Notes: generated by a model not told the origin, from the letters alone. A DNA stretch of 64,000 bases from an uncultured Gammaproteobacteria bacterium (GCA_964629685.1 CAZVTT010000001.1:17877-81876); one strand, 5' to 3'. Shown: positions 1,350 through 27,733, numbered from the stretch's first letter. Numbers and translations: made by a program.

Positions 1350-2375
1350 TTATTTCAGCCGGCCGAAGAAGAGTTGCCCTGCAGCGGTTTGGTGCACCTT
1401 AGATATGATTACGGAAACATCCATACCCACTTTATCTTTTGCGCTATCAACGATCACCATGGTACCGTCAGCCAAATAGCCGACTCCCTGTTCCCGTTCT
1501 TTTCCTTCGTGGGTAATTTTTATCGTCAATTCTTCACCGGGAATAATGGACAATTTCAAAGCCTGCGTCAGATCGTTCACATTCATTACCTTAACCCCAT
1601 GTGCCCGGGCAAGCTGTGCCAAATTAAAATCAACTGTCATCAGTTTGGCTTTCCAGAATTTAGCCAGTCCCAATAATTTATGATCTACTTCTTTTACGTC
1701 TTCTACATCATCTTTTATGGTTCTGGTCTTTACTTGTTCATTGGCTTTCTGGGCTTTTAATTTCATAACTACTTCCAGTCCCCGCCTGCCTTTTGCTCTC
1801 CGCAGCGAATCGCTGCTATCGGCAATATGCTGCAACTCGCCCAGTACAAACTCCGGGATTAAAAGTGTGCCCGCCAAAAAATTACTGTTCACAATGGGAA
1901 GCAGTCTGCCATCCACTAAAACACTCGTATCTACCAGCATGAGGTTATTTCCTTCGGGCGTGGGAATCTCTTTAAAATCTTCCAAATCCACATCGCGGGA
2001 AAACGGCCGCATCTTTCCGATTGTGGAAAGACTTCGGACCACTTCAAAAGCCACCATCCTGGCAAACTCGGCAGGATTAGTCGGCTGTTTCGGTGAACCT
2101 GCCGGCGCCACTTTCCCATTCTGCGTAGCTTTCTGCATGCTGGTAAATGTCTTGGGGTCTATTATCTGCTCAGACTCGACCGGAGCCTTGCTTGCAGCTT
2201 TTGGAAGAAATTTCTGTTCAGTTTTCGGTTCGGTATTTGTCTCAGTCTTATGCTCAGTCGGAGCGGCTGTGGCAGCAGTCGTAGCCGATCGTTCTGCCTG
2301 CTTACGGTTAGATACCGGAGCAGCAGAACGAGGTGAATTCTGCTTTTTCATTCTAACTATTGTAGCATAAAACAC
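1350..2375 (-). CDS. PIN/TRAM domain protein (YacL-like), with low-complexity Ala/Thr/Lys-rich N-terminus
   Basis: Central PIN-like segment (VDTSVLVDGRL...ELQHIAD). C-terminal TRAM-like beta domain (GVGYLADGTMVIVDSAKDKVGMDVSVIISKVHQTAAGQLFFGRL). True start may be the internal Met (MKKQN). Confidence 0.6.
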   Translation of the reverse strand: MFYATIVRMKKQNSPRSAAPVSNRKQAERSATTAATAAPTEHKTETNTEPKTEQKFLPKAASKAPVESEQIIDPKTFTSMQKATQNGKVAPAGSPKQPTNPAEFARMVAFEVVRSLSTIGKMRPFSRDVDLEDFKEIPTPEGNNLMLVDTSVLVDGRLLPIVNSNFLAGTLLIPEFVLGELQHIADSSDSLRRAKGRRGLEVVMKLKAQKANEQVKTRTIKDDVEDVKEVDHKLLGLAKFWKAKLMTVDFNLAQLARAHGVKVMNVNDLTQALKLSIIPGEELTIKITHEGKEREQGVGYLADGTMVIVDSAKDKVGMDVSVIISKVHQTAAGQLFFGRLK

Positions 2376-2470
2376 CGATCTGAACCACCAAAAAAGGACC
2401 CGTTCTCCGTGCGTTCACGAATAAGGATCCTTGGGCAAATATCGTCAGTACAGTTCCGTCTCGCCTCAAA

Positions 2471-2563
2471 TTATCCCGGTCTTGGGAAAGGCCGGAATGA
2501 AGAGAGGCGAAACGGGGGCTGTCATGAAACAAAGACCGGATGGTCAATGTGTCGCCTCTCTTC
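2471..2563 (-). promoter_or_regulatory. conserved structured element, copy 1: 11-bp stem GAAGAGAGGCG/CGCCTCTCTTC plus conserved flanks. Lies in the 5' region of the PIN/TRAM gene
   Basis: Blocks TTATCCCGGTCTT, AAAGGCCGGAATGAAGAGAGGCG and CGCCTCTCTTC on the + strand. Near-identical blocks at 7502..7582. A second interleaved inverted repeat CCGGTCTT/AAGACCGG is present. Confidence 0.4.
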
Positions 2564-2583
2564 TTGGTGGTCTTCGATGTGTG

Positions 2584-2967
2584 TTAACGGCGATACTGCC
2601 CCAGATAGAGAAAAGTCAGAATCAAAGGGACAGACGAAAACATCGCCACGATGCCGGATGTAAGAACGATGCCGCCGGTATTTCCGAGGTAAAACAGCAC
2701 CAGATGTGCCGCCATCACCGAGAAAAGGACGAGCGCCAGTAGACCGGACAGGATGATGACATTGCTATTCTTCGGTTTCCCTATCACCGCGACAATCACC
2801 ACCGACTGGAAGACGAAGATAGTGATATAGGTGATAATGGCGTGGGTATTAGTGGTCAACCCGAATGTGTGCAGAATGGCAAGCATCAAGGCGATGGCTG
2901 CCGCGAGCAGAAGAGTGCGTTTCATGATGTAGCTCCTGTAAAAGTACGTTAGCGAGATTTGCAACAA
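2584..2967 (-). CDS. small integral membrane protein (about 4 TM), hypothetical
   Basis: 127 aa ORF with four hydrophobic stretches. Confidence 0.45.
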   Translation of the reverse strand: MLQISLTYFYRSYIMKRTLLLAAAIALMLAILHTFGLTTNTHAIITYITIFVFQSVVIVAVIGKPKNSNVIILSGLLALVLFSVMAAHLVLFYLGNTGGIVLTSGIVAMFSSVPLILTFLYLGQYRR

Positions 2968-3044
2968 CCATTATACTACTATAGGTCTTATTTGTCAAGC
3001 AAATCGAGGCTAATTTCTTCTTTTTTAGCTCACAAATCGCGAGT

Positions 3045-4808
3045 TTAGTGGTTACGGTGATATATCACATACGTTGGAAATTCATGCGAAATGGTAAAAA
3101 AACGCTCCATACCGATCCATGAGGGAGTTAAATCCACTAACCCAAAATACGGCAGCAACTGCCATTTTCGTTTCAGGATTACCCACTCTGCCCCACTATC
3201 CGCAATGATCTGAGCCATGGCACCATAATCCACCGGATATGTTCCCAACTGCAATTGCGAAAATGACAACGGATTTGTGCGTCCGGTTACGGCAAAAAAC
3301 GGGTCTTCTCCGGGCAAAAATGCTACCGGCTCATTTTTAGGAATGGTGGCATCGGCATACCGGAAAAGCTCTTCCATCTCCGTAATCCAGGTCCCATTTA
3401 CCGTTAAACCCCGTAATTTCCCGTCACGTGCAGTCTGCCTGGCGCCGTCCAGAGATACATACCGCTGGGCATCCTTCCGCAGTAAAGACATAGCCAGAAT
3501 TCCACAGAGGAACAAACTCCCCAACACGACGAAAACTGTCGTTTTCGTCGTCGGAAATATCCGTCTAAAGTCATGCACCGCAATAGCTGTCAAAATAACG
3601 AACAAAGGCCAAAGACCATAGGCAGAACCGACGACATGGTGCGATAAGTAGGTGGCATTAGCCGCCAAAACTATTGGCAACGGAATCAAAAACCCCAACA
3701 TGTGTGCTGATCTGGTAGTAACAAATCTGAACACCATTTGGATTATCGTAACAATATAAACACTGATAAATGCGTAAAGAACAATAATTGTATACAAATG
3801 TATTTCCGGAGCACGAATTACCAATAAATACATATAATGAATGACTACCGCCATCATCGCCAGAAAAATTCCCAATGACAGTATCCGGATTTTATGGGTA
3901 GCGGAAGGACCTGCATCGGAGCCGGCCATTTTTTTGACCAGCTCCAAACTCACTGCCCCCAGTAAAAATGCGGCAAAATGCAGTGAACCGTCCCGCAGTA
4001 AAGAAAAATACCGCAAATACTCTCCACGTATGGCTTTCAATTCAATTTCAGGCGATTTCATAACCCGGGGAAATTCGATAGTTTGCCGGATAAACGGCAT
4101 AAACGCCTGCTGACTAATCAACCATCCCACAAAAGCTGCCAACGTCAGTACGACCCCTCCGAAAAACACGATAAATAGCACGAAATCGTTTCGTTTTCGC
4201 CACCGGAGTGCCCATACCCCAACTACGGAAAAAAATCCCGCCAGGTATGCTGCACCGGTATTCTGCTTAAAAAAGACCGGCACGGTCGCCATCACGCCCA
4301 GCGGGACATACCACCACCACCGTCGTGGTCTGTCCGTAATCACCAAAAACAACCATATATGAAACACAATCGCTGCCACACACCAGATGTCATACAACGG
4401 AAACGGATAAATCACATGCCCGGTAAATAACAGTGGTAACAATAATGCGCCCTGAATGATCGGATCTTTTATAAATCGTTTAATGACAAAAAATGTGGTT
4501 ATGACGGTAAAAAACGACACGAACATACACGCAAACACTAAAGGTATATGCGAGTAGCCGCCATAAAGTTTCATTACGAAAGCTGTCAACAGATACGTTC
4601 CCGGAGTAAGTACCAGGAAAAAATCCCGATATGGCATCTGACCAAGAAAAATTCTGTATGCGTTTTCCACCTGATATGCATAATCTACCAGCGGCGTTGC
4701 AGTAAGCGATTGCCAGGCTGTCATCACGCCGGCAGCTAATCCCAGAACAAGTGTCAGTAAAAACGATTTAGTCGGACGGAGATGACGAAATGGTGTTGCG
4801 GACAGCAT
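3045..4808 (-). CDS. polytopic membrane protein, GT-C fold (ArnT/PMT-like) glycosyltransferase-like
   Basis: 587 aa with at least 10 predicted TM helices. Arg/Asp-containing first loop (YRDFF) and a large periplasmic C-terminal domain, typical of GT39/GT83-type enzymes. Assignment by architecture only. Confidence 0.4.
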   Translation of the reverse strand: MLSATPFRHLRPTKSFLLTLVLGLAAGVMTAWQSLTATPLVDYAYQVENAYRIFLGQMPYRDFFLVLTPGTYLLTAFVMKLYGGYSHIPLVFACMFVSFFTVITTFFVIKRFIKDPIIQGALLLPLLFTGHVIYPFPLYDIWCVAAIVFHIWLFLVITDRPRRWWWYVPLGVMATVPVFFKQNTGAAYLAGFFSVVGVWALRWRKRNDFVLFIVFFGGVVLTLAAFVGWLISQQAFMPFIRQTIEFPRVMKSPEIELKAIRGEYLRYFSLLRDGSLHFAAFLLGAVSLELVKKMAGSDAGPSATHKIRILSLGIFLAMMAVVIHYMYLLVIRAPEIHLYTIIVLYAFISVYIVTIIQMVFRFVTTRSAHMLGFLIPLPIVLAANATYLSHHVVGSAYGLWPLFVILTAIAVHDFRRIFPTTKTTVFVVLGSLFLCGILAMSLLRKDAQRYVSLDGARQTARDGKLRGLTVNGTWITEMEELFRYADATIPKNEPVAFLPGEDPFFAVTGRTNPLSFSQLQLGTYPVDYGAMAQIIADSGAEWVILKRKWQLLPYFGLVDLTPSWIGMERFFTISHEFPTYVIYHRNH

Positions 4809-4836
4809 AGCTCTTTCCGTAAAACGAACCTGCGGG

Positions 4837-6078
4837 TCAATATTTTACTTTTTTCGGAATAGGTATATTTTGATTTCGGCAAATCATGGCTACATTCCAG
4901 CACAACAAGCCCAGAATCGGAAATGCCTTGAGTATCATCTGATCAAATCGTTCCAACGGTTTATACAACCACTCCCACGACTCCGCCTCTTTAATAATAG
5001 ACTTCCAATACCGCTCTTTATTGGGGTTCCGACGCTGAACTACTGCCATTATTACAAAAATTACAAGCGTAGAAAGCCAAAACCACCGAATTTCGGCATG
5101 GGGAAATTCACGTTTAAATACGTCTATATCAGCCATGGTAAACGGCCGTTCGTCATGTGACCGGACGCTCGTTGCAATCCGCCGGTACACATTAATAATC
5201 GGATTGTAATGCAGCGGTTCCCACAGCACGAGTACTCCGGTCGGTTTTAAATATTTGTGTATTCCTGCCAGTGTCTTGGCTATATCGACATGATGAAATA
5301 CATTCCCGACATACACAATATCAAAGGAAGTTCCCGAAGGGAATTTCAATTGTTCCACCGAAGCCTGAACCGTACGGACCGAAACGTTGTAACGTTTGGC
5401 TAATCGCTGGACTACATCCAGCATGGGTTTTGATAAATCTACCGACGTCACCTTTGCACCCCGTAACGCAAAATAGACACTGGCTTCGCCCAGACCACAC
5501 CCTAAATCCAACACCCGCTTTCCCCGGATATCGGGCAACGACGCGTGAATAAAGCGTAACTCGGGCACGGTACAGACAGTATTACTGCGGACCACATCAA
5601 TGGTTTTCACATCAATACCTTCCGCCCAAACATCGGAAAGTTTTTCCTCATCTTCTATCTTGGCAATGGCCTGCTGACTAACAACCGTCGTGCTGCGGGA
5701 ACTCAGGGGAATATCCGCCAACCGGGCAATTGCACGAATCGTCTGTAAAAAAAATGCATCATTCTGTTTTCTGATGGCGTCTTCTCCAAACGGTAAATGC
5801 GTTTTTGCCTGTGCATCCCGGAATACTTCAGTATCTCCTCTGGTGTAATAGCGTACCGACTTCAGCGAAAATGTTGTAACGCCCCGTTTTGGGTATGTCC
5901 ATTTCACCCGGATAGTCTCACTATCAACGGGCGTAAACACGAATGAGTTCACAAATTTCTCCCAAACCTTATAGCGCTTTGGATCTATCTGCCTTTCCCG
6001 TTCTGCTAATCCTTTGGCTTGCAAGAGCAGGTGGTGAATAGCACTTTCAAAATATGGTTTCTTCGGCATAATTGTCAT
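4837..6078 (-). CDS. class I SAM-dependent methyltransferase with C-terminal membrane anchor
   Basis: Motif I VLDLGCGLGEASV. Acidic post-I SVDLS. Motif II/III IVYVGNVFHH...LKPTGVLVL. Hydrophobic helix near the C-terminus. Confidence 0.7.
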   Translation of the reverse strand: MTIMPKKPYFESAIHHLLLQAKGLAERERQIDPKRYKVWEKFVNSFVFTPVDSETIRVKWTYPKRGVTTFSLKSVRYYTRGDTEVFRDAQAKTHLPFGEDAIRKQNDAFFLQTIRAIARLADIPLSSRSTTVVSQQAIAKIEDEEKLSDVWAEGIDVKTIDVVRSNTVCTVPELRFIHASLPDIRGKRVLDLGCGLGEASVYFALRGAKVTSVDLSKPMLDVVQRLAKRYNVSVRTVQASVEQLKFPSGTSFDIVYVGNVFHHVDIAKTLAGIHKYLKPTGVLVLWEPLHYNPIINVYRRIATSVRSHDERPFTMADIDVFKREFPHAEIRWFWLSTLVIFVIMAVVQRRNPNKERYWKSIIKEAESWEWLYKPLERFDQMILKAFPILGLLCWNVAMICRNQNIPIPKKVKY

Positions 6079-6111
6079 TCTGAACTTGATTCAGAATCTC
6101 TCGTATAATTC

Positions 6112-7419
6112 TTATCCTTTATTTTTCTTTCTATTTTTACCATTTGTTGCTGACTTACCGTGTCCGGTTGCTTTGCGGAATCGTTGTTTCTTTTCGGTTT
6201 CCGCGAGGACAGTTTCCGCTGTAGAAACTAATTGTTCATACGTTAGGGGCCACGGTTTAGGGGGCGGCTTAGTTAAAAACGTCTGTATCCGCTGCAATTT
6301 AGCTTTCATAAACCGCATGGATATCGACATTTCCGGGTAACTCCCGTACATACACCCATGACAACCGCTGGTTATGGCGTACACGTCTTTTCTGAATACC
6401 TTGTCATAGTAGGCCTGGGGAAAATCATCCGCATATGTGTGCACCGACCGGGGTAACCGCCAGTCACAACACGGGGCAAAATCCCCGTTCGGCAGTACCG
6501 CAAAGTACAAATTAGGACTGTCACATACACCTTTATTTTTCCCTCTCCAGGTTGTCGGTTCATTCCGCACAAATCGCTTTATATCGTCCAGATACTGATC
6601 GCTGTCATACAGTAAAAATCCTGCTTCCCGCAGCGACCTCACGTTTTCAATTACCTCGTCAATTCCGGCAAATTCGTCCGGACGGAATCGTAAAGACTGG
6701 TCATATGTCCGAAAACCCAGCGGTTGAAAATGATCGGACACATGAATAGGCACCAGCGAGGTATACCATCCCACTCGGGTTCCGAAACGGATCACCCCTT
6801 CTATATCACGTAAATTATCCCGTTGCAGTACGCATCCGAACGATGCAAAGCTGTTTTCTTTAGGAAGATATTTAGAAAATATAGCGACAGACGCAAGCGC
6901 CCTGTTCCAGGAACGGACAAACCCGCCGTTAATTTCATCCTGAACCTGTGGTTTTAACGAATCAAGCGATATGGAAATATCATGACCGCCGTATTCTATG
7001 GATTTATGAATCTGTTCCTCTGTTGCCAGACCGTTTGTTTGCATGCGTACATGTATCCTCCGGGATTCAAACTCCCGGATTATTTCCGGCAAGTCCTGAC
7101 GTGTGTACGGTTCCCCACCGGTAAGCAACACCATTGCCACCCCAAGCTTGGCAAAATTTTCCGCTATACGTTTAATTTCTTCCAGGGTACACTCGCGCAT
7201 ATCCGCATTCGCGTAACGGATATTGCATTGTTTGCAGGTTAAATTACATCGCGCGGTGATATAAAACTGTACATACACCGGACGATCCTGTAATAACGAA
7301 GAACGGAGCAGCGTTCCCTGCGAAGTAAATGAAAAAAATCCTGACGGCCTCATAAGAACTGACTCATCATAAGCCGTACGGTTCACCTTGTAAACCCTGT
7401 TTATCCGCCTCCATTTCAC
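6112..7419 (-). CDS. radical SAM protein with SPASM/twitch-like C-terminal Cys cluster
   Basis: CNLTCKQC (Cx3Cx2C) followed by the GGEP glycine-rich motif. C-terminal CDSPNLYFAVLPNGDFAPCCDW...CHGCMYGSY auxiliary cluster cysteines. Confidence 0.75.
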   Translation of the reverse strand: MKWRRINRVYKVNRTAYDESVLMRPSGFFSFTSQGTLLRSSLLQDRPVYVQFYITARCNLTCKQCNIRYANADMRECTLEEIKRIAENFAKLGVAMVLLTGGEPYTRQDLPEIIREFESRRIHVRMQTNGLATEEQIHKSIEYGGHDISISLDSLKPQVQDEINGGFVRSWNRALASVAIFSKYLPKENSFASFGCVLQRDNLRDIEGVIRFGTRVGWYTSLVPIHVSDHFQPLGFRTYDQSLRFRPDEFAGIDEVIENVRSLREAGFLLYDSDQYLDDIKRFVRNEPTTWRGKNKGVCDSPNLYFAVLPNGDFAPCCDWRLPRSVHTYADDFPQAYYDKVFRKDVYAITSGCHGCMYGSYPEMSISMRFMKAKLQRIQTFLTKPPPKPWPLTYEQLVSTAETVLAETEKKQRFRKATGHGKSATNGKNRKKNKG

Positions 7420-7501
7420 AAAAAAGGCCCCGCATATACCGCATTGGTATAATTGGAGCCCTATTATCCGATAATATAAGAAAGTACGTAACCGCCCCTT
7501 A

Positions 7502-7582
7502 TTATCCCGATCCTTTTCGTAAAGACCGGAATGAAGAGAGGCGGTATACGGATTGGATTGGACATAAGGTCCACCCCTCTTC
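7502..7582 (-). promoter_or_regulatory. conserved structured element, copy 2 (stem GAAGAGGGGTGG/CCGCCTCTCTTC with G.U wobbles), upstream of the radical SAM gene
   Basis: Blocks TTATCCCGATCCTTTT and AAAGACCGGAATGAAGAGAGGCGG are 22/23 identical to copy 1. The partner strand CCACCCCTCTTC pairs only as minus-strand RNA (A-U to G.U and C-G to U.G changes). Confidence 0.4.
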
Positions 7583-7590
7583 GCAACGAA

Positions 7591-7938
7591 TCATGGAAAA
7601 ATCGGTAAAGCTTTATACGCAATTTGCCGTGCGTAAAAAAGGCACAGCAATCCGGTGGTAACCACAAAACCGATCGTGATACCGCTCCGGTAGGTTACGG
7701 GAAGCAGAAATTTTAACATCAAACCGAACGCAAGAACCACAAATCCGATTCCGCCTATGCGGATTGCCGCCGCAAAATATGGTGGCATTGGTGCCAGCCG
7801 GTGCAATATCGCCCGCAGTTCGCCGCCAAACAGCCGAATAAACAGCAAGGCAAACATGGCACCGATAAATATACCTCCTAACTGTTCAGTTCGGGGTGTT
7901 AATGGTATCCGGTAGAACTGTACAAACGCCAGCATCAT
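7591..7938 (-). CDS. small membrane protein, hypothetical
   Basis: 115 aa ORF with 3-4 hydrophobic helices; overlaps the next gene by 4 bp. Confidence 0.4.
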   Translation of the reverse strand: MMLAFVQFYRIPLTPRTEQLGGIFIGAMFALLFIRLFGGELRAILHRLAPMPPYFAAAIRIGGIGFVVLAFGLMLKFLLPVTYRSGITIGFVVTTGLLCLFYARQIAYKALPIFP

Positions 7939-8384
7939 GGATGTTTTTCCTTCCTGCCGAATTTATTGGCATACATCTGCATGACCAAGCCGATATTCAT
8001 CACGCCGCCGAACACGAGTCCGGTCAGAAACGAATTCGTCACGCTGAACAACATGAATATACCGATGACCGATATAACCATCCCGAATAACGACAAAGCT
8101 CCCCAGATTTCCTCAGAAAACCATGACTTGGCAATCCAACACATCCGAAGCGATAACGTAGCATAAACATAGGTTGCCACCATCGCCAGGACTACACCCG
8201 ACAATTGAGCGCTGTCTTTCAGGAGAAAAAATGCCACTACGAGGAATATCAACACAATGATGCGTTCACGCGGATAAAGGAATGTCCACAACGGACGTGC
8301 TGGCACGGATTGGGCGTGTTTTCGCATGATTCGATCCTCACTTTCAAGGTGCGACGTATTGTACGTCACGTTACAATCGGACAA
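7935..8384 (-). CDS. small membrane protein, hypothetical
   Basis: 149 aa ORF with 4 hydrophobic helices; 4-bp start/stop overlap with the downstream gene. Confidence 0.4.
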   Translation of the reverse strand: MSDCNVTYNTSHLESEDRIMRKHAQSVPARPLWTFLYPRERIIVLIFLVVAFFLLKDSAQLSGVVLAMVATYVYATLSLRMCWIAKSWFSEEIWGALSLFGMVISVIGIFMLFSVTNSFLTGLVFGGVMNIGLVMQMYANKFGRKEKHP

Positions 8385-18332: not shown

Positions 18333-19439
18333 ATGAAGATAGTATCCGGATTCATAACCGTACTTATATCACTGGGAATCGCTCTTGTTATTTCTTTCGC
18401 TATCATGGAATGGTATTTATCCCGGGTGCAGTACCAGCCACCGCCAATTGCCTGGAAATGGATCATTGGAGATACCACTCAACCCACTGAGTTTGACACC
18501 GATAATACTCTGATCTTCCGAACCAAAAAAAATATTCCCGGTGAAACCAACGACATGGGATTCAGGATGGATAATGACAACATACATAGTACGAATCTTA
18601 TTCTTGCAATCGGTGATTCATTTACCTACGGAGACTTCGTCACCAGAGAACACGCGTATCCCCAACAGTTAGCAGATATTCTGGCGTCAGAGGGATACGC
18701 ATATACTGTAGTAAATGCCGGTATAAACAGTTTTGGTCCGGATCAGGAATTGGAACTAACGAGAAATCTTGTAACCGTCGATCATATCGAACCTCAAATA
18801 GTCATTTGGCAACTGTTTTTGAATGATTTATCGGATACGGTTAAACATCCGTTATATATACCTCTCGGAAGAACAATGATAAAAATTCCTGCCTGGATCA
18901 ACAGTACCTATATCACAAAAAAAATCACCGGTATAATCCCCCGTTATCTCGCTCAATATAAAACCACGAGTTACCTGATTTACCAATTCAGTCAGTTAAA
19001 TACTGCATCATTTGCCGTGGGAAGTAATAAAAAATTATATCAGCAGAAAAAAATCAGCTTTCTTTTGCAGGAAATGGATACCTTATCACGAAATAATAAT
19101 TTTAAAGTTATTATCGTTCTGGCACCCCACCGGGGGGTATTACGACAAAATCCCGAAGCTACGGCTGAGTATCTATTTATGAAAAAACTACTTGAAGAAC
19201 AAACAGATTTTCCCGTTATCGACATGCATCAATATATAGCACAAATATCTGAAGCATCCGTCTCTGCGGGAATATCACCGAATCAGCCACTATTTAATTC
19301 CGATGAAGTTGAATCTCCCAATTACCCCTGGAAGCATTTAACAAAAGAAGGAAATACTCTACTGGCGCAAACTGTTTTTACCCAATTATTGCGGCATAAT
19401 CTGCTACAAAAAAACCGCTCCACGGTTCCCCAGCCTTGA
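18333..19439 (+). CDS. SGNH/GDSL-type hydrolase, membrane-anchored (paralog 1)
   Basis: Block I AIGDSFTYGDF with N-terminal TM anchor. The ORF track starts at TTG 18297; ATG 18333 (MKIVSGF...) is the more likely start. Confidence 0.6.
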   Translation: MKIVSGFITVLISLGIALVISFAIMEWYLSRVQYQPPPIAWKWIIGDTTQPTEFDTDNTLIFRTKKNIPGETNDMGFRMDNDNIHSTNLILAIGDSFTYGDFVTREHAYPQQLADILASEGYAYTVVNAGINSFGPDQELELTRNLVTVDHIEPQIVIWQLFLNDLSDTVKHPLYIPLGRTMIKIPAWINSTYITKKITGIIPRYLAQYKTTSYLIYQFSQLNTASFAVGSNKKLYQQKKISFLLQEMDTLSRNNNFKVIIVLAPHRGVLRQNPEATAEYLFMKKLLEEQTDFPVIDMHQYIAQISEASVSAGISPNQPLFNSDEVESPNYPWKHLTKEGNTLLAQTVFTQLLRHNLLQKNRSTVPQP

Positions 19440-19553
19440 GTTATCTTCCCGGTTCCTTGCGAAACAGGTATTGTCACCGCTAACGCGTTTCACTTCTGAG
19501 TTCGGAATGGGATCAGGTGGGACCACGTCGCTCCAAAGACTGGAGAACCCTAA
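19438..19553 (-). rRNA. rrf: 5S ribosomal RNA
   Basis: Minus-strand sequence GGTCCCACCTGATCCCATTCCGAACTCAGAAGTGAAACGCG matches the universal 5S core; boundaries approximate. Confidence 0.8.
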
Positions 19554-19705
19554 AGCGGTTCTCCTATCAATACACACAAACTCAACGATTACATTATATA
19601 TAAAAAGTAATTACACGTAAGGGATAATCCAATAGATTCCGTTACAACCAAAATTTCACCAGGAATCAAGAGTCCTTCACCAAATAATTGATTCAGGATT
19701 CCTTT

Positions 19706-22980
<3,275 letters not shown>

Positions 22981-23275
22981 AACAAAGGATCTGTCCTTCG
23001 CTTACGCTCAGGACCGAACCCTTGATCTTCCGGCGAAAAATTGTGCTGTAAGGGTGATCCATATGGATTACCCCTTACGATGCAACTACTTTTCAAAAAA
23101 ATTGAATTCACAAAAAAATCTACAATACAAGGAATTTCACCCTATTGTAGACAATCGTTGAGTTGTTAAAGTACTGCACTCACAATAATTGTTAAGTCGT
23201 TACATGGTTAAACTGTTAGCTGTCTTGCAACAGGTTAGCAATTTAGCCATTTAACAAAATAACAATTAATCCGTG

Positions 23276-23348
23276 TGGACCTGGGCGGAGTCGAACCGCC
23301 TACCTCTTCATTGCAAATGAAGCGTTCAACCAGGTAAACTTCAGGCCC
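23276..23348 (-). tRNA. tRNA-Ala (anticodon TGC)
   Basis: Minus-strand GGGCCTGAAGTTTACCTGGTTGAACGCTTCATTTGCAATGAAGAGGTAGGCGGTTCGACTCCGCCCAGGTCCA. G3:U70 identity pair. Anticodon loop TTTGCAA. T-arm GGTTCGACTCC. CCA not encoded. Confidence 0.9.
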
Positions 23349-27186: not shown

Positions 27187-27483
27187 TTAATCAATCTGAA
27201 TTCTTTGTTGTTTAAGCCACTCTATGATCGGATCATGAAAATCGGTAGTGCGGTAAAGAGGTTTCCCGGCGCGGATACCGAACAGAACGGCTGTCGGAAC
27301 ATCCAGTCCTTGTTCATAGTGGTATCCCCACGTTCTTTCGAGTCCCCATACCGATTCCCGCCGGACTTCAACTTCAATCACAGCGCAGTGCTGTCCCCCG
27401 TCGAAAAACTTCCACTGAATCCGCAGATTGTCACTCACGGTGTGAGTCCCAGTTTGTGTCGGCTGACCTTGTGCAAATTTCAT
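27187..27483 (-). CDS. hypothetical protein (98 aa)
   Basis: ORF with coding-like composition; no motif recognised. Confidence 0.35.
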   Translation of the reverse strand: MKFAQGQPTQTGTHTVSDNLRIQWKFFDGGQHCAVIEVEVRRESVWGLERTWGYHYEQGLDVPTAVLFGIRAGKPLYRTTDFHDPIIEWLKQQRIQID

Positions 27484-27558
27484 AGCCTGCTCCTGTCGAA
27501 CGTACGATAATTTTTTTCAGGGCCAAACCCCGTGCTCATCCAACGGACGAACCTCCCT

Positions 27559-27578
27559 GTACATATATATATGTACAA
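27559..27578. promoter_or_regulatory. perfect 20-bp palindrome TGTACATATATATATGTACA in a divergent intergenic region
   Basis: Palindrome between divergently oriented genes (27483 minus start, 27734 plus start); candidate operator. Confidence 0.3.
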
Positions 27579-27733
27579 AGACGTCCGCCCGTTGCTCTCC
27601 CTCATTATGGAAAAGTGCGTACTATAGCACAGTCAAAGCTAACATTAACTGCTATAGGTTGCCTGAAGTGTACAAAATATGGTTGTTCGCGTCAAACTGA
27701 GCTAATTCACTGACACGGTATAATACCGACAGA

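Follow-up and report, generated by a model that had tools for sequence, protein, structure and literature searches.

A conserved structured RNA element, best read as a 3'-end module of small-membrane-protein units, in a few closely related candidate-phyla-radiation bacteria

The stretch of DNA analysed here, referred to as the window, is 64,000 nucleotides long. On its minus strand lie two genes for small membrane proteins of different families, called A and B, and behind the stop codon of each gene stands one copy of a repeated element. Copy 1 is followed on the same strand by a gene for a PIN/TRAM protein and copy 2 by a radical SAM operon. Homologues of the radical SAM and PIN/TRAM proteins are named "Patescibacteria group bacterium" and "Candidatus Gottesmanbacteria". 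Judged from such homologues, the neighbouring proteins place the window in Patescibacteria, and the four lineages treated below look Gottesmanbacteria-like. The features are as follows; the promoters, the terminators and the status of 3' UTR are sequence predictions throughout.

2970..2998, minus strand: predicted promoter of the copy-1 unit, TTGACA-17-TATAAT, 12/12 consensus matches
2584..2925, minus strand: gene for a 113-aa small membrane protein (family A), Shine-Dalgarno (SD) sequence CAGGAG, stop codon 20 nt before the purine arm
2553..2563, minus strand: copy 1, purine arm GAAGAGAGGCG, SD-like, 5' strand of helix A
2534..2545, minus strand: copy 1, P0, GACC-AUCC-GGUC, from predicted folds
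2499..2509, minus strand: copy 1, invariant core CGCCUCUCUUC, the strand common to helix A and P1 of hairpin B
2456..2515, minus strand: copy 1, hairpin B, with P1 GUUUCGCCUC/GAGGCGAGAC, a partly paired internal loop and P2 CCGGCCUU/AAGACCGG, from MFE and covariation
2390..2432, minus strand: copy 1, predicted two-tier terminator, outer stem AAGGAUCC/GGGUCCUU, inner stem UUCGUG/CACGGA, U6
2359..2367, minus strand: candidate extended -10 TGCTACAAT, 7 nt before the PIN/TRAM ATG (2351-2349), found by eye and not called by the scan
7591..7938, minus strand: gene for a 115-aa small membrane protein (family B), second gene of a two-gene unit, stop codon 8 nt before the arm
7571..7582, minus strand: copy 2, purine arm GAAGAGGGGUGG, with G-U and U-G wobbles
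7560..7572, minus strand: copy 2, P0, GGAC-CUUAU-GUCC, from predicted folds
7533..7543, minus strand: copy 2, invariant core CGCCUCUCUUC, by sequence match
7485..7551, minus strand: copy 2, hairpin B, with P1 CGUA-U-ACCGCCUC / GGGGCGGU-UACG and P2 CCGGUCUUU/AAGGAUCGG
7420..7462, minus strand: copy 2, predicted two-tier terminator, outer stem GGGCUCC/GGGGCCU, inner stem UAUACC/GGUAUA, U6
7366..7394, minus strand: promoter-like site of the radical SAM operon, TTTACA-17-TATGAT, 10/12 matches, past the copy-2 terminator

The two minus-strand units (copy 1 ~2390-2563, copy 2 ~7420-7582) are direct repeats 5,034 bp apart with a gene block between them. They are ~70% alike overall, yet share an identical 18-mer, CGCCTCTCTTCATTCCGG, which occurs exactly twice on the minus strand of the window (2492-2509 and 7526-7543); with up to 3 mismatches allowed, 0.05 matches would be expected by chance. 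A repeat search of the window recovered both shared blocks (D4 and D14) as well as the inverted repeat of copy 1 (I4). A preliminary description of this DNA had reported near-identical blocks in two minus-strand intergenic regions, and all the items described are present in the sequence. It had put their limits at 2471-2563 and 7502-7582; the repeat itself is there, but its homologous span is longer, ~170-200 nt from just past the upstream stop codon to the T-run. No third copy was found in the 64-kb window, either with an nhmmer profile built from the two copies or with covariance model R1. A candidate at 27507-27597 (-) was rejected as an unrelated hairpin (E = 0.13). This hairpin is long, its apex (GGGCGGACGUCUUUGUACAUAUAUAUAUGUACAGGGAGGUUCGUCCGUU) is (AU)n-rich, and it belongs to the leader of a 98-aa ORF (27187-27483).

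Comparison with known families was negative. Rfam 15 at gathering thresholds gave only 23S rRNA, 5S rRNA and one tRNA in the whole window, and in the two regions at E <= 10 it gave only microRNA and snoRNA noise of 11-17 bits vs gathering scores of 39-80. The Rfam check proposed in the preliminary description thus brought no known element in either region. In the region 19428-23348 (minus strand) the 23S rRNA match spans 3,276 nt vs a model of 2,925 positions, ~350 nt extra, and the gene probably carries an insertion or intron. The tRNA and the 5S rRNA adjoin the 23S rRNA and there is no 16S rRNA in the window; the rRNA operon appears to be split.

Homologues of the element were obtained by protein-guided retrieval, not by exact-pattern scans. 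In related metagenome assemblies four further copies were found, giving six distinct sequences from four lineages, which form two paralogue groups, PIN-type (n=4) and rSAM-type. The locus closest to the window, L052 (PIN/TRAM 99% identical), has a variant of copy 1. L041 (92% identical) has one copy, upstream of PIN/TRAM; L042 (78% identical), syntenic with the window, carries both. The element is absent beside PIN/TRAM homologues at 66-74% identity (L044, L045, L060), beside radical SAM orthologues at 78-80% identity, and from the short intergenic gaps of the radical SAM homologue loci L005-L012. In slightly more distant relatives the gaps upstream of the radical SAM and PIN/TRAM orthologues measure 12-73 nt. 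A covariance-model search of the related loci confirmed the absence in distant relatives and added no copies. The search for further instances and covariation in relatives, also suggested beforehand, yielded the four additional copies, and the six sequences show two-sided changes in hairpin B and in the terminator.

Wider scans gave no further homologue. In the GTDB representative genomes the pattern TCTTCATTCCGGN{6,24}CGGGATAA had 28 matches, all without the flanking core and about the number expected by chance as estimated by hand; the pattern was too specific because CGGGATAA is poorly conserved. A three-block pattern had a single match in the JGI metagenomes, inside a eukaryotic kinase ORF, and the scan of IMG/VR gave six unrelated hairpins. 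Five viral contigs of IMG/VR (L046-L049 and L051) have a 65-nt hairpin in common, whose arms match AAGAGRGRYG and CGCCTCTCTTC. It was considered as a homologue and set aside as a chance resemblance, its nhmmer E of ~0.2 being insignificant. The element is a real structured RNA that has not been described before, and its known range is limited to a few close relatives among the candidate-phyla-radiation bacteria.

Read 5' to 3' on the minus strand, the module consists of the stop codon, the purine arm, a small hairpin P0, hairpin B, a linker, and a two-tier GC-rich hairpin followed by U6. The arm is SD-like (GAAGAGRGRYG or AAGAGRGRYG) and begins 8-20 nt past the upstream stop codon in 6/6 copies. 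P0 follows it directly with 4 bp, GACC/GGUC in the PIN-type and GGAC/GUCC in the rSAM-type copies, and the P0 of copy 1 is present in every computed fold. The pyrimidine core CGCCUCUCUUC, 11 nt long, is the same in each of the six sequences. On its 3' side come P2, an A-rich variable strand and then the sequence GRGGCG. All invariant bases lie in the arm, the core or the GRGGCG strand, and each strongly conserved base is accounted for by one of two helical arrangements, A or B.

In helix A the arm pairs with the core. In copy 1 this joins GAAGAGAGGCG (2563-2553) to CGCCUCUCUUC (2509-2499) by 11 Watson-Crick pairs around a 43-nt loop. In copy 2 it joins GAAGAGGGGUG(G) (7582-7571) to (C)CGCCUCUCUUC, the strands being GAAGAGGGGUGG/CCGCCUCUCUUC, by 12 pairs, one of them G-U and one U-G, around a loop of 26 nt, or 28 nt when counted as in copy 1. 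This bears out the helix of 11-12 bp with a loop of 26-43 nt that had been described. Over the six sequences 97% of the cells of helix A are paired. Two-sided changes were found in 0/11 pairs, the only changes being A-U to G-U and C-G to U-G, and the helix is beyond the reach of covariation testing because one of its strands never varies. The wobbles of copy 2 are therefore as reported, but they are one-sided changes against an invariant 3' strand and not compensatory ones. The same description had noted a second, interleaved repeat, CCGGTCTT (2538-2531) with AAGACCGG (2483-2476), which is indeed present in copy 1. In L041, however, its 3' strand has changed together with the local P2 partner (CCGGAUUU/AAAUCCGG) and the upstream CCGGUCUU is unchanged. 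As far as the aligned sequences tell, CCGGTCTT/AAGACCGG is not a maintained pairing.

In hairpin B the same core pairs with GRGGCG to form P1, with covarying extensions, and P2 adds a second stem. In an alignment made with MAFFT only, 87% of its cells are paired and 9/21 pairs show two-sided changes. The covariation score is 0.384 vs 0.183 +/- 0.041 in shuffled alignments, a value reached by 0/500 shuffles. For hairpin B and the terminator together in the covariance-model alignment (A11), which was fitted to the structure itself, 91.9% of cells are paired, 18/34 pairs are compensatory and the score is 0.445 vs 0.207 +/- 0.030 (0/500 reach it); all these covariation statistics are inflated because the six sequences are related and come from four close lineages and two paralogue groups. 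Slid controls for the same structures gave covariation of at most 0.14, and RNAalifold predicted the same helices independently. In the terminator the outer stem is 100% paired with 4/8 pairs compensatory and the inner stem has 5/6 compensatory, so that two-sided changes occur in 9/14 pairs of the two stems. A GC-rich two-tier hairpin directly followed by U6, the form of an intrinsic terminator, stands in 6/6 copies; the simple scan did not call these terminators because the loop is longer than 8 nt. Fold z-scores against shuffles are -7.3 and -5.1 for the two window copies. The strand test counted 18 G-U vs 3 A-C, the latter being G-U on the opposite strand, and therefore the minus strand of the window is the folding strand. 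The earlier claim of a conserved RNA structure on the minus strand, and not a DNA site, is borne out by the folds kept in six homologues, the covariation and the strand-specific G-U pairs.

Helix A and hairpin B are mutually exclusive because both use the core. With folds constrained to one or the other, A and B lie 3-7 kcal/mol apart in predicted energy in every copy, near-isoenergetic, and the partition function at equilibrium prefers B for four copies and A for the other two. The alternative-structure arrangement noted earlier is thus real in both the constrained folds and the partition function. The terminator hairpin stays intact in all six sequences whether the fold is forced to A or to B. 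The 3' strand of the internal loop varies among the copies (GAUAAUUU, AAAGUUU, AAUAAUCG, AUGAAG), and no conserved unpaired ligand pocket is left.

The position of the element with respect to transcription was examined next to the two upstream genes. The perfect promoter predicted before the family-A gene recurs identically ahead of the orthologous gene in L041 (9209-9237) and L042 (5324-5352); orthologues of family A are P0242, P0243 and L042:5401-5724. This perfect sigma-70 consensus in three lineages, placed before an orphan membrane protein of 107-114 aa, implies, if the prediction holds, very high expression of the gene. The two-gene unit of family B has a promoter-like site at 8419-8392 (-), and its family-B protein has an orthologue, 51% identical, at L042:507-857. 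Family A has no Pfam, NCBIfam, PHROG or PADLOC match, and for the small proteins as a whole PHROGs and PADLOC gave none. Between families A and B no homology was detectable (BLASTP E > 4; hhalign probability 0.7%), for which reason a co-duplication of gene and UTR was rejected. The promoter scan predicted no promoter-like site in the interval from the upstream ORF to the element. Compared with L052, the window shows 56-76% nucleotide identity in the family-A coding region and the spacer from stop codon to arm; the identity is back to 96% from ~2558, within the arm (2563-2553), and stays high beyond. With so hypervariable a stretch upstream, a conserved promoter just before the element is therefore unlikely.

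Downstream of both copies other promoter-like sequences are found. In the window, L052, L041 and L042 alike, exactly 7 nt separate TGnTACAAT from the ATG of PIN/TRAM, and an extended -10 so close to the ATG implies a separate, near-leaderless PIN/TRAM transcript. The PIN/TRAM (YacL-like) gene has no SD sequence in these same four loci; its mRNA is probably leaderless. The -10 region before the radical SAM operon, TAT(A)GATGAGT, recurs in L042. Taken together, the predicted promoters, the position of the arm relative to the stop codon and the identity boundary with L052 assign the element to the 3' UTR of the unit that precedes it. It is best read, on these predictions, as a 3' UTR or operon-end module of the upstream small-membrane-protein units and not as a riboswitch leader.

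Some further observations were made on the surroundings. The family-A gene is a hotspot of divergence from L052 (compared over 2560-2860, minus strand), with 92-96% identity on both flanks. The family-A proteins of the two are 68% identical and the adjoining PIN/TRAM proteins 99%, which suggests allelic replacement or diversifying selection. Bounded by a 297-aa polyprenyl-synthase-like gene on one side and the family-A gene on the other, the interval 3045-8384 (-) forms a variable island. Two small membrane genes, radical SAM, a methyltransferase and a 587-aa membrane protein occupy it in the window and L042; the same interval in L041 (8105-9061) has a single unrelated ORF of 318 aa. In more distant relatives RadA directly adjoins PIN/TRAM (L044).

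Several other explanations of the element have to be weighed. The preliminary description took it as a riboswitch or expression platform for the PIN/TRAM and radical SAM genes. In its general form this would be a cis-acting 5' leader, a riboswitch or an attenuator controlled by protein or RNA, with A and B as its platform. Mutually exclusive helices do stand upstream of an intrinsic terminator in an intergenic region, a same-strand gene follows both window copies, and in the lack of an Rfam match a new class is formally possible. However, neither A nor B overlaps the terminator, and therefore the predicted folds contain no antiterminator. Both downstream genes have promoter-like sequences of their own past the terminator, kept in relatives. 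The arm begins 8-20 nt past a stop codon with hypervariable sequence upstream, which leaves no room for a conserved promoter. The internal loop with its variable 3' strand offers no conserved ligand pocket. The two genes, for an RNase-like PIN/TRAM protein and a radical SAM enzyme, are functionally unrelated, and their orthologues (radical SAM at 78-80%, PIN/TRAM at 66-74%) do without the element. The riboswitch reading fails five defining features and is disfavoured; a leader of any such kind is improbable, and the PIN/TRAM or radical SAM genes should not be annotated with a riboswitch. As the main rival to the reading preferred below, the copies could be sibling sRNAs derived from the 3' UTR and ended by the terminator, released by processing of the upstream mRNA or made from an undetected internal promoter. 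The C/U-rich 11-mer would then be an anti-SD seed for target mRNAs, and the purine arm an internal decoy masking it in the unprocessed mRNA. A conserved short core with a diverged remainder is typical of sibling sRNAs with a shared seed, and these paralogues, though diverged to ~70% overall, have the 18-mer unchanged between the window copies and the 11-mer unchanged in all six sequences. The invariance goes beyond what pairing needs, a strong terminator hairpin forms the 3' end, and the core is complementary to GAGG-type SDs such as CAGGAG, GUGAGGA and GGAAGGA before genes here. Against this, the seed is base-paired in both predicted conformers, only UCUUCAU lying in the internal loop of B. 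Core-complementary sites in the 64-kb window number 13 vs 10.3 expected, which is no enrichment, and neither a processing site nor, by promoter scan, an internal promoter was identified. We regard the sRNAs as rather unlikely.

A coding function is also conceivable: the conserved block would encode a short peptide, which in copy 1 would read M-TAPVS-PLFIPAFPKTGII and in copy 2 MSNPIRIPPLFIPVFTKRIGIIRGGYVLSYIIG, and the purine arm would be its ribosome-binding site (RBS). The frame PLF(I/M)P(A/V)F is open in 4/6 copies, copy 2 has a well-spaced SD and AUG, and both substitutions between the window and L052 within the frame are synonymous. But a 1-nt deletion shifts the frame in L041, and L042_rSAM has RTL for PAF, CUG for AUG and an extra 1-nt shift before the core. 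In both of these copies the frame runs through without a stop before the end of the terminator. The AUG of the PIN-type copies lacks an SD and stands 30 nt away from the arm, and the changes that break the frame keep the P2 pairing. With the PLFIPAFP frame broken or rewritten in 2/6 copies and its start and SD inconsistent, a conserved small ORF was rejected, and the peptide is very improbable. As elements of the DNA itself, the repeats might be recombination sites or ends of a mobile cassette carrying the radical SAM, methyltransferase and membrane genes, REP-like hairpins, or an operator. As direct repeats, with 5,034 bp from one to the other, they enclose a gene block, and in L041 the block is missing, with the 318-aa ORF between the same flanking genes instead. 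Yet both copies are at orthologous positions in L042, whose PIN/TRAM is only 78% identical, and therefore they are old and stable. L041 is not a simple excision product either, because it keeps family A and not family B. The neighbouring ORFs scanned include no transposase, integrase or reverse transcriptase. The G-U pairing is strand-specific, the spacing of the helix arms ranges from 28 to 45 nt, unlike a dimeric operator, and there are no other copies in the 64 kb or the related loci. A DNA-level role is accordingly the least credible of these, being extremely improbable. Known elements were considered one by one and rejected: integron attC, REP and IS200/IS605 (no such genes nearby and two copies only, with no attC R-box or REP GTAG seen by eye); a diversity-generating retroelement with TR/VR (copy differences not adenine-specific, no reverse transcriptase among the ORFs scanned); a signal for frameshifting or read-through where the upstream gene stops (inspection by eye showed no slippery heptamer); and a K-turn in the internal loop (no GA on the 5' strand).

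Our preferred reading is that of a lineage-specific module forming the 3' untranslated end of strongly promoted units, with a two-state fold in cis set by terminating ribosomes. As a whole it is put forward tentatively, as a possibility that comes close to an even chance without reaching it. The module would terminate and insulate the upstream unit. The trio of arm, core and GRGGCG partner would act in cis as a two-state fold, set by ribosomes finishing translation a short way before it. With a ribosome or 30S subunit held at the stop codon or on the SD-like arm, the arm would stay unpaired and the compact hairpin B would be favoured; an mRNA that is not translated would take up helix A, leaving the GRGGCG strand free. 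The choice between A and B may alter nuclease access and in this way tie the lifetime of the mRNA to its translation. The same module stands behind two small-protein families without detectable homology, that is, independently of the coding sequence. In the PIN-type copies (n=4) the arm lies 14-20 nt past the stop codon, outside the direct footprint of a terminating ribosome. The invariance of the 11-mer, exceeding the needs of pairing alone, hints at recognition in trans. It is distinctly unlikely that both functions are combined in a new class of bacterial 3'-UTR riboregulator, a bistable switch of an SD mimic and an anti-SD mimic which is read by terminating ribosomes and also releases sibling sRNAs whose invariant anti-SD seed targets other RBSs. 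If true, Patescibacteria (CPR) would have in this combination their first described RNA-based post-transcriptional circuit.

The reduced genomes of CPR bacteria have few recognisable regulators, and to our knowledge almost nothing is known about regulation at the RNA level in CPR/Patescibacteria. Structured and constrained 3' UTRs are poorly catalogued in bacteria. The present element is a clean example: its 11-mer does not vary, two helices compete for it, the terminator covaries, and the whole is kept at two paralogous positions in four lineages. Should a role in translation sensing or as sRNA prove true, gene control in these uncultivated organisms would become accessible to experiment. At present the motif is narrow, confined to its lineage and of a general kind already known, and the practical outcome is the correction of a riboswitch annotation for the PIN/TRAM or radical SAM genes.

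When compared with known systems, the module belongs to none of them by sequence or by the defining features tested. Type I toxin mRNAs are controlled by fold-back, as in the fbi-tac of hok/sok and in SD-sequestering elements. A small hydrophobic protein, a strong promoter and long-range SD-like and anti-SD-like pairings are found here as well, but the proteins are large, 107-116 aa, and the SD-like arm is not the gene's own RBS. Promoter scans of the window and L041 found no antisense promoter or antitoxin RNA. With riboswitch and attenuator platforms the element shares helices that exclude each other, are similar in energy and precede an intrinsic terminator; it differs in having the terminator outside the switch, no aptamer-like core, no promoter before the element, and promoter-like sequences downstream. 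Sibling and 3'-UTR-derived sRNAs with shared seeds include OmrA/B and, with C-rich seeds, RsaE/RoxS. An identical short core with a diverged rest, a terminator hairpin and an SD-complementary pyrimidine motif liken our element to these, unlike which its core is predicted to be paired in both conformers. Pairing within one mRNA is known from S. aureus icaR, in which a motif of the 3' UTR pairs with the SD in the 5' UTR of the same mRNA (PMC3868564), and from the 5'/3'-UTR interaction of B. subtilis hbs (PMC5737220). Pairing of the icaR type with the 5' UTR or RBS of the upstream genes was rejected: for the core +/-5 nt RNAduplex gave -7.6 to -10.2 kcal/mol, energies equal to the shuffled means, with 42-64% of shuffles equal or better. 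Unlike icaR, the core has its partner, the SD-like arm, inside the 3' UTR itself, and there is no sequence homology. Like icaR and hbs, the units studied here have a long structured 3' UTR (170-200 nt) with a C/U-rich, anti-SD-like motif, and by this likeness a role linking the fate of the mRNA to its translation is plausible.
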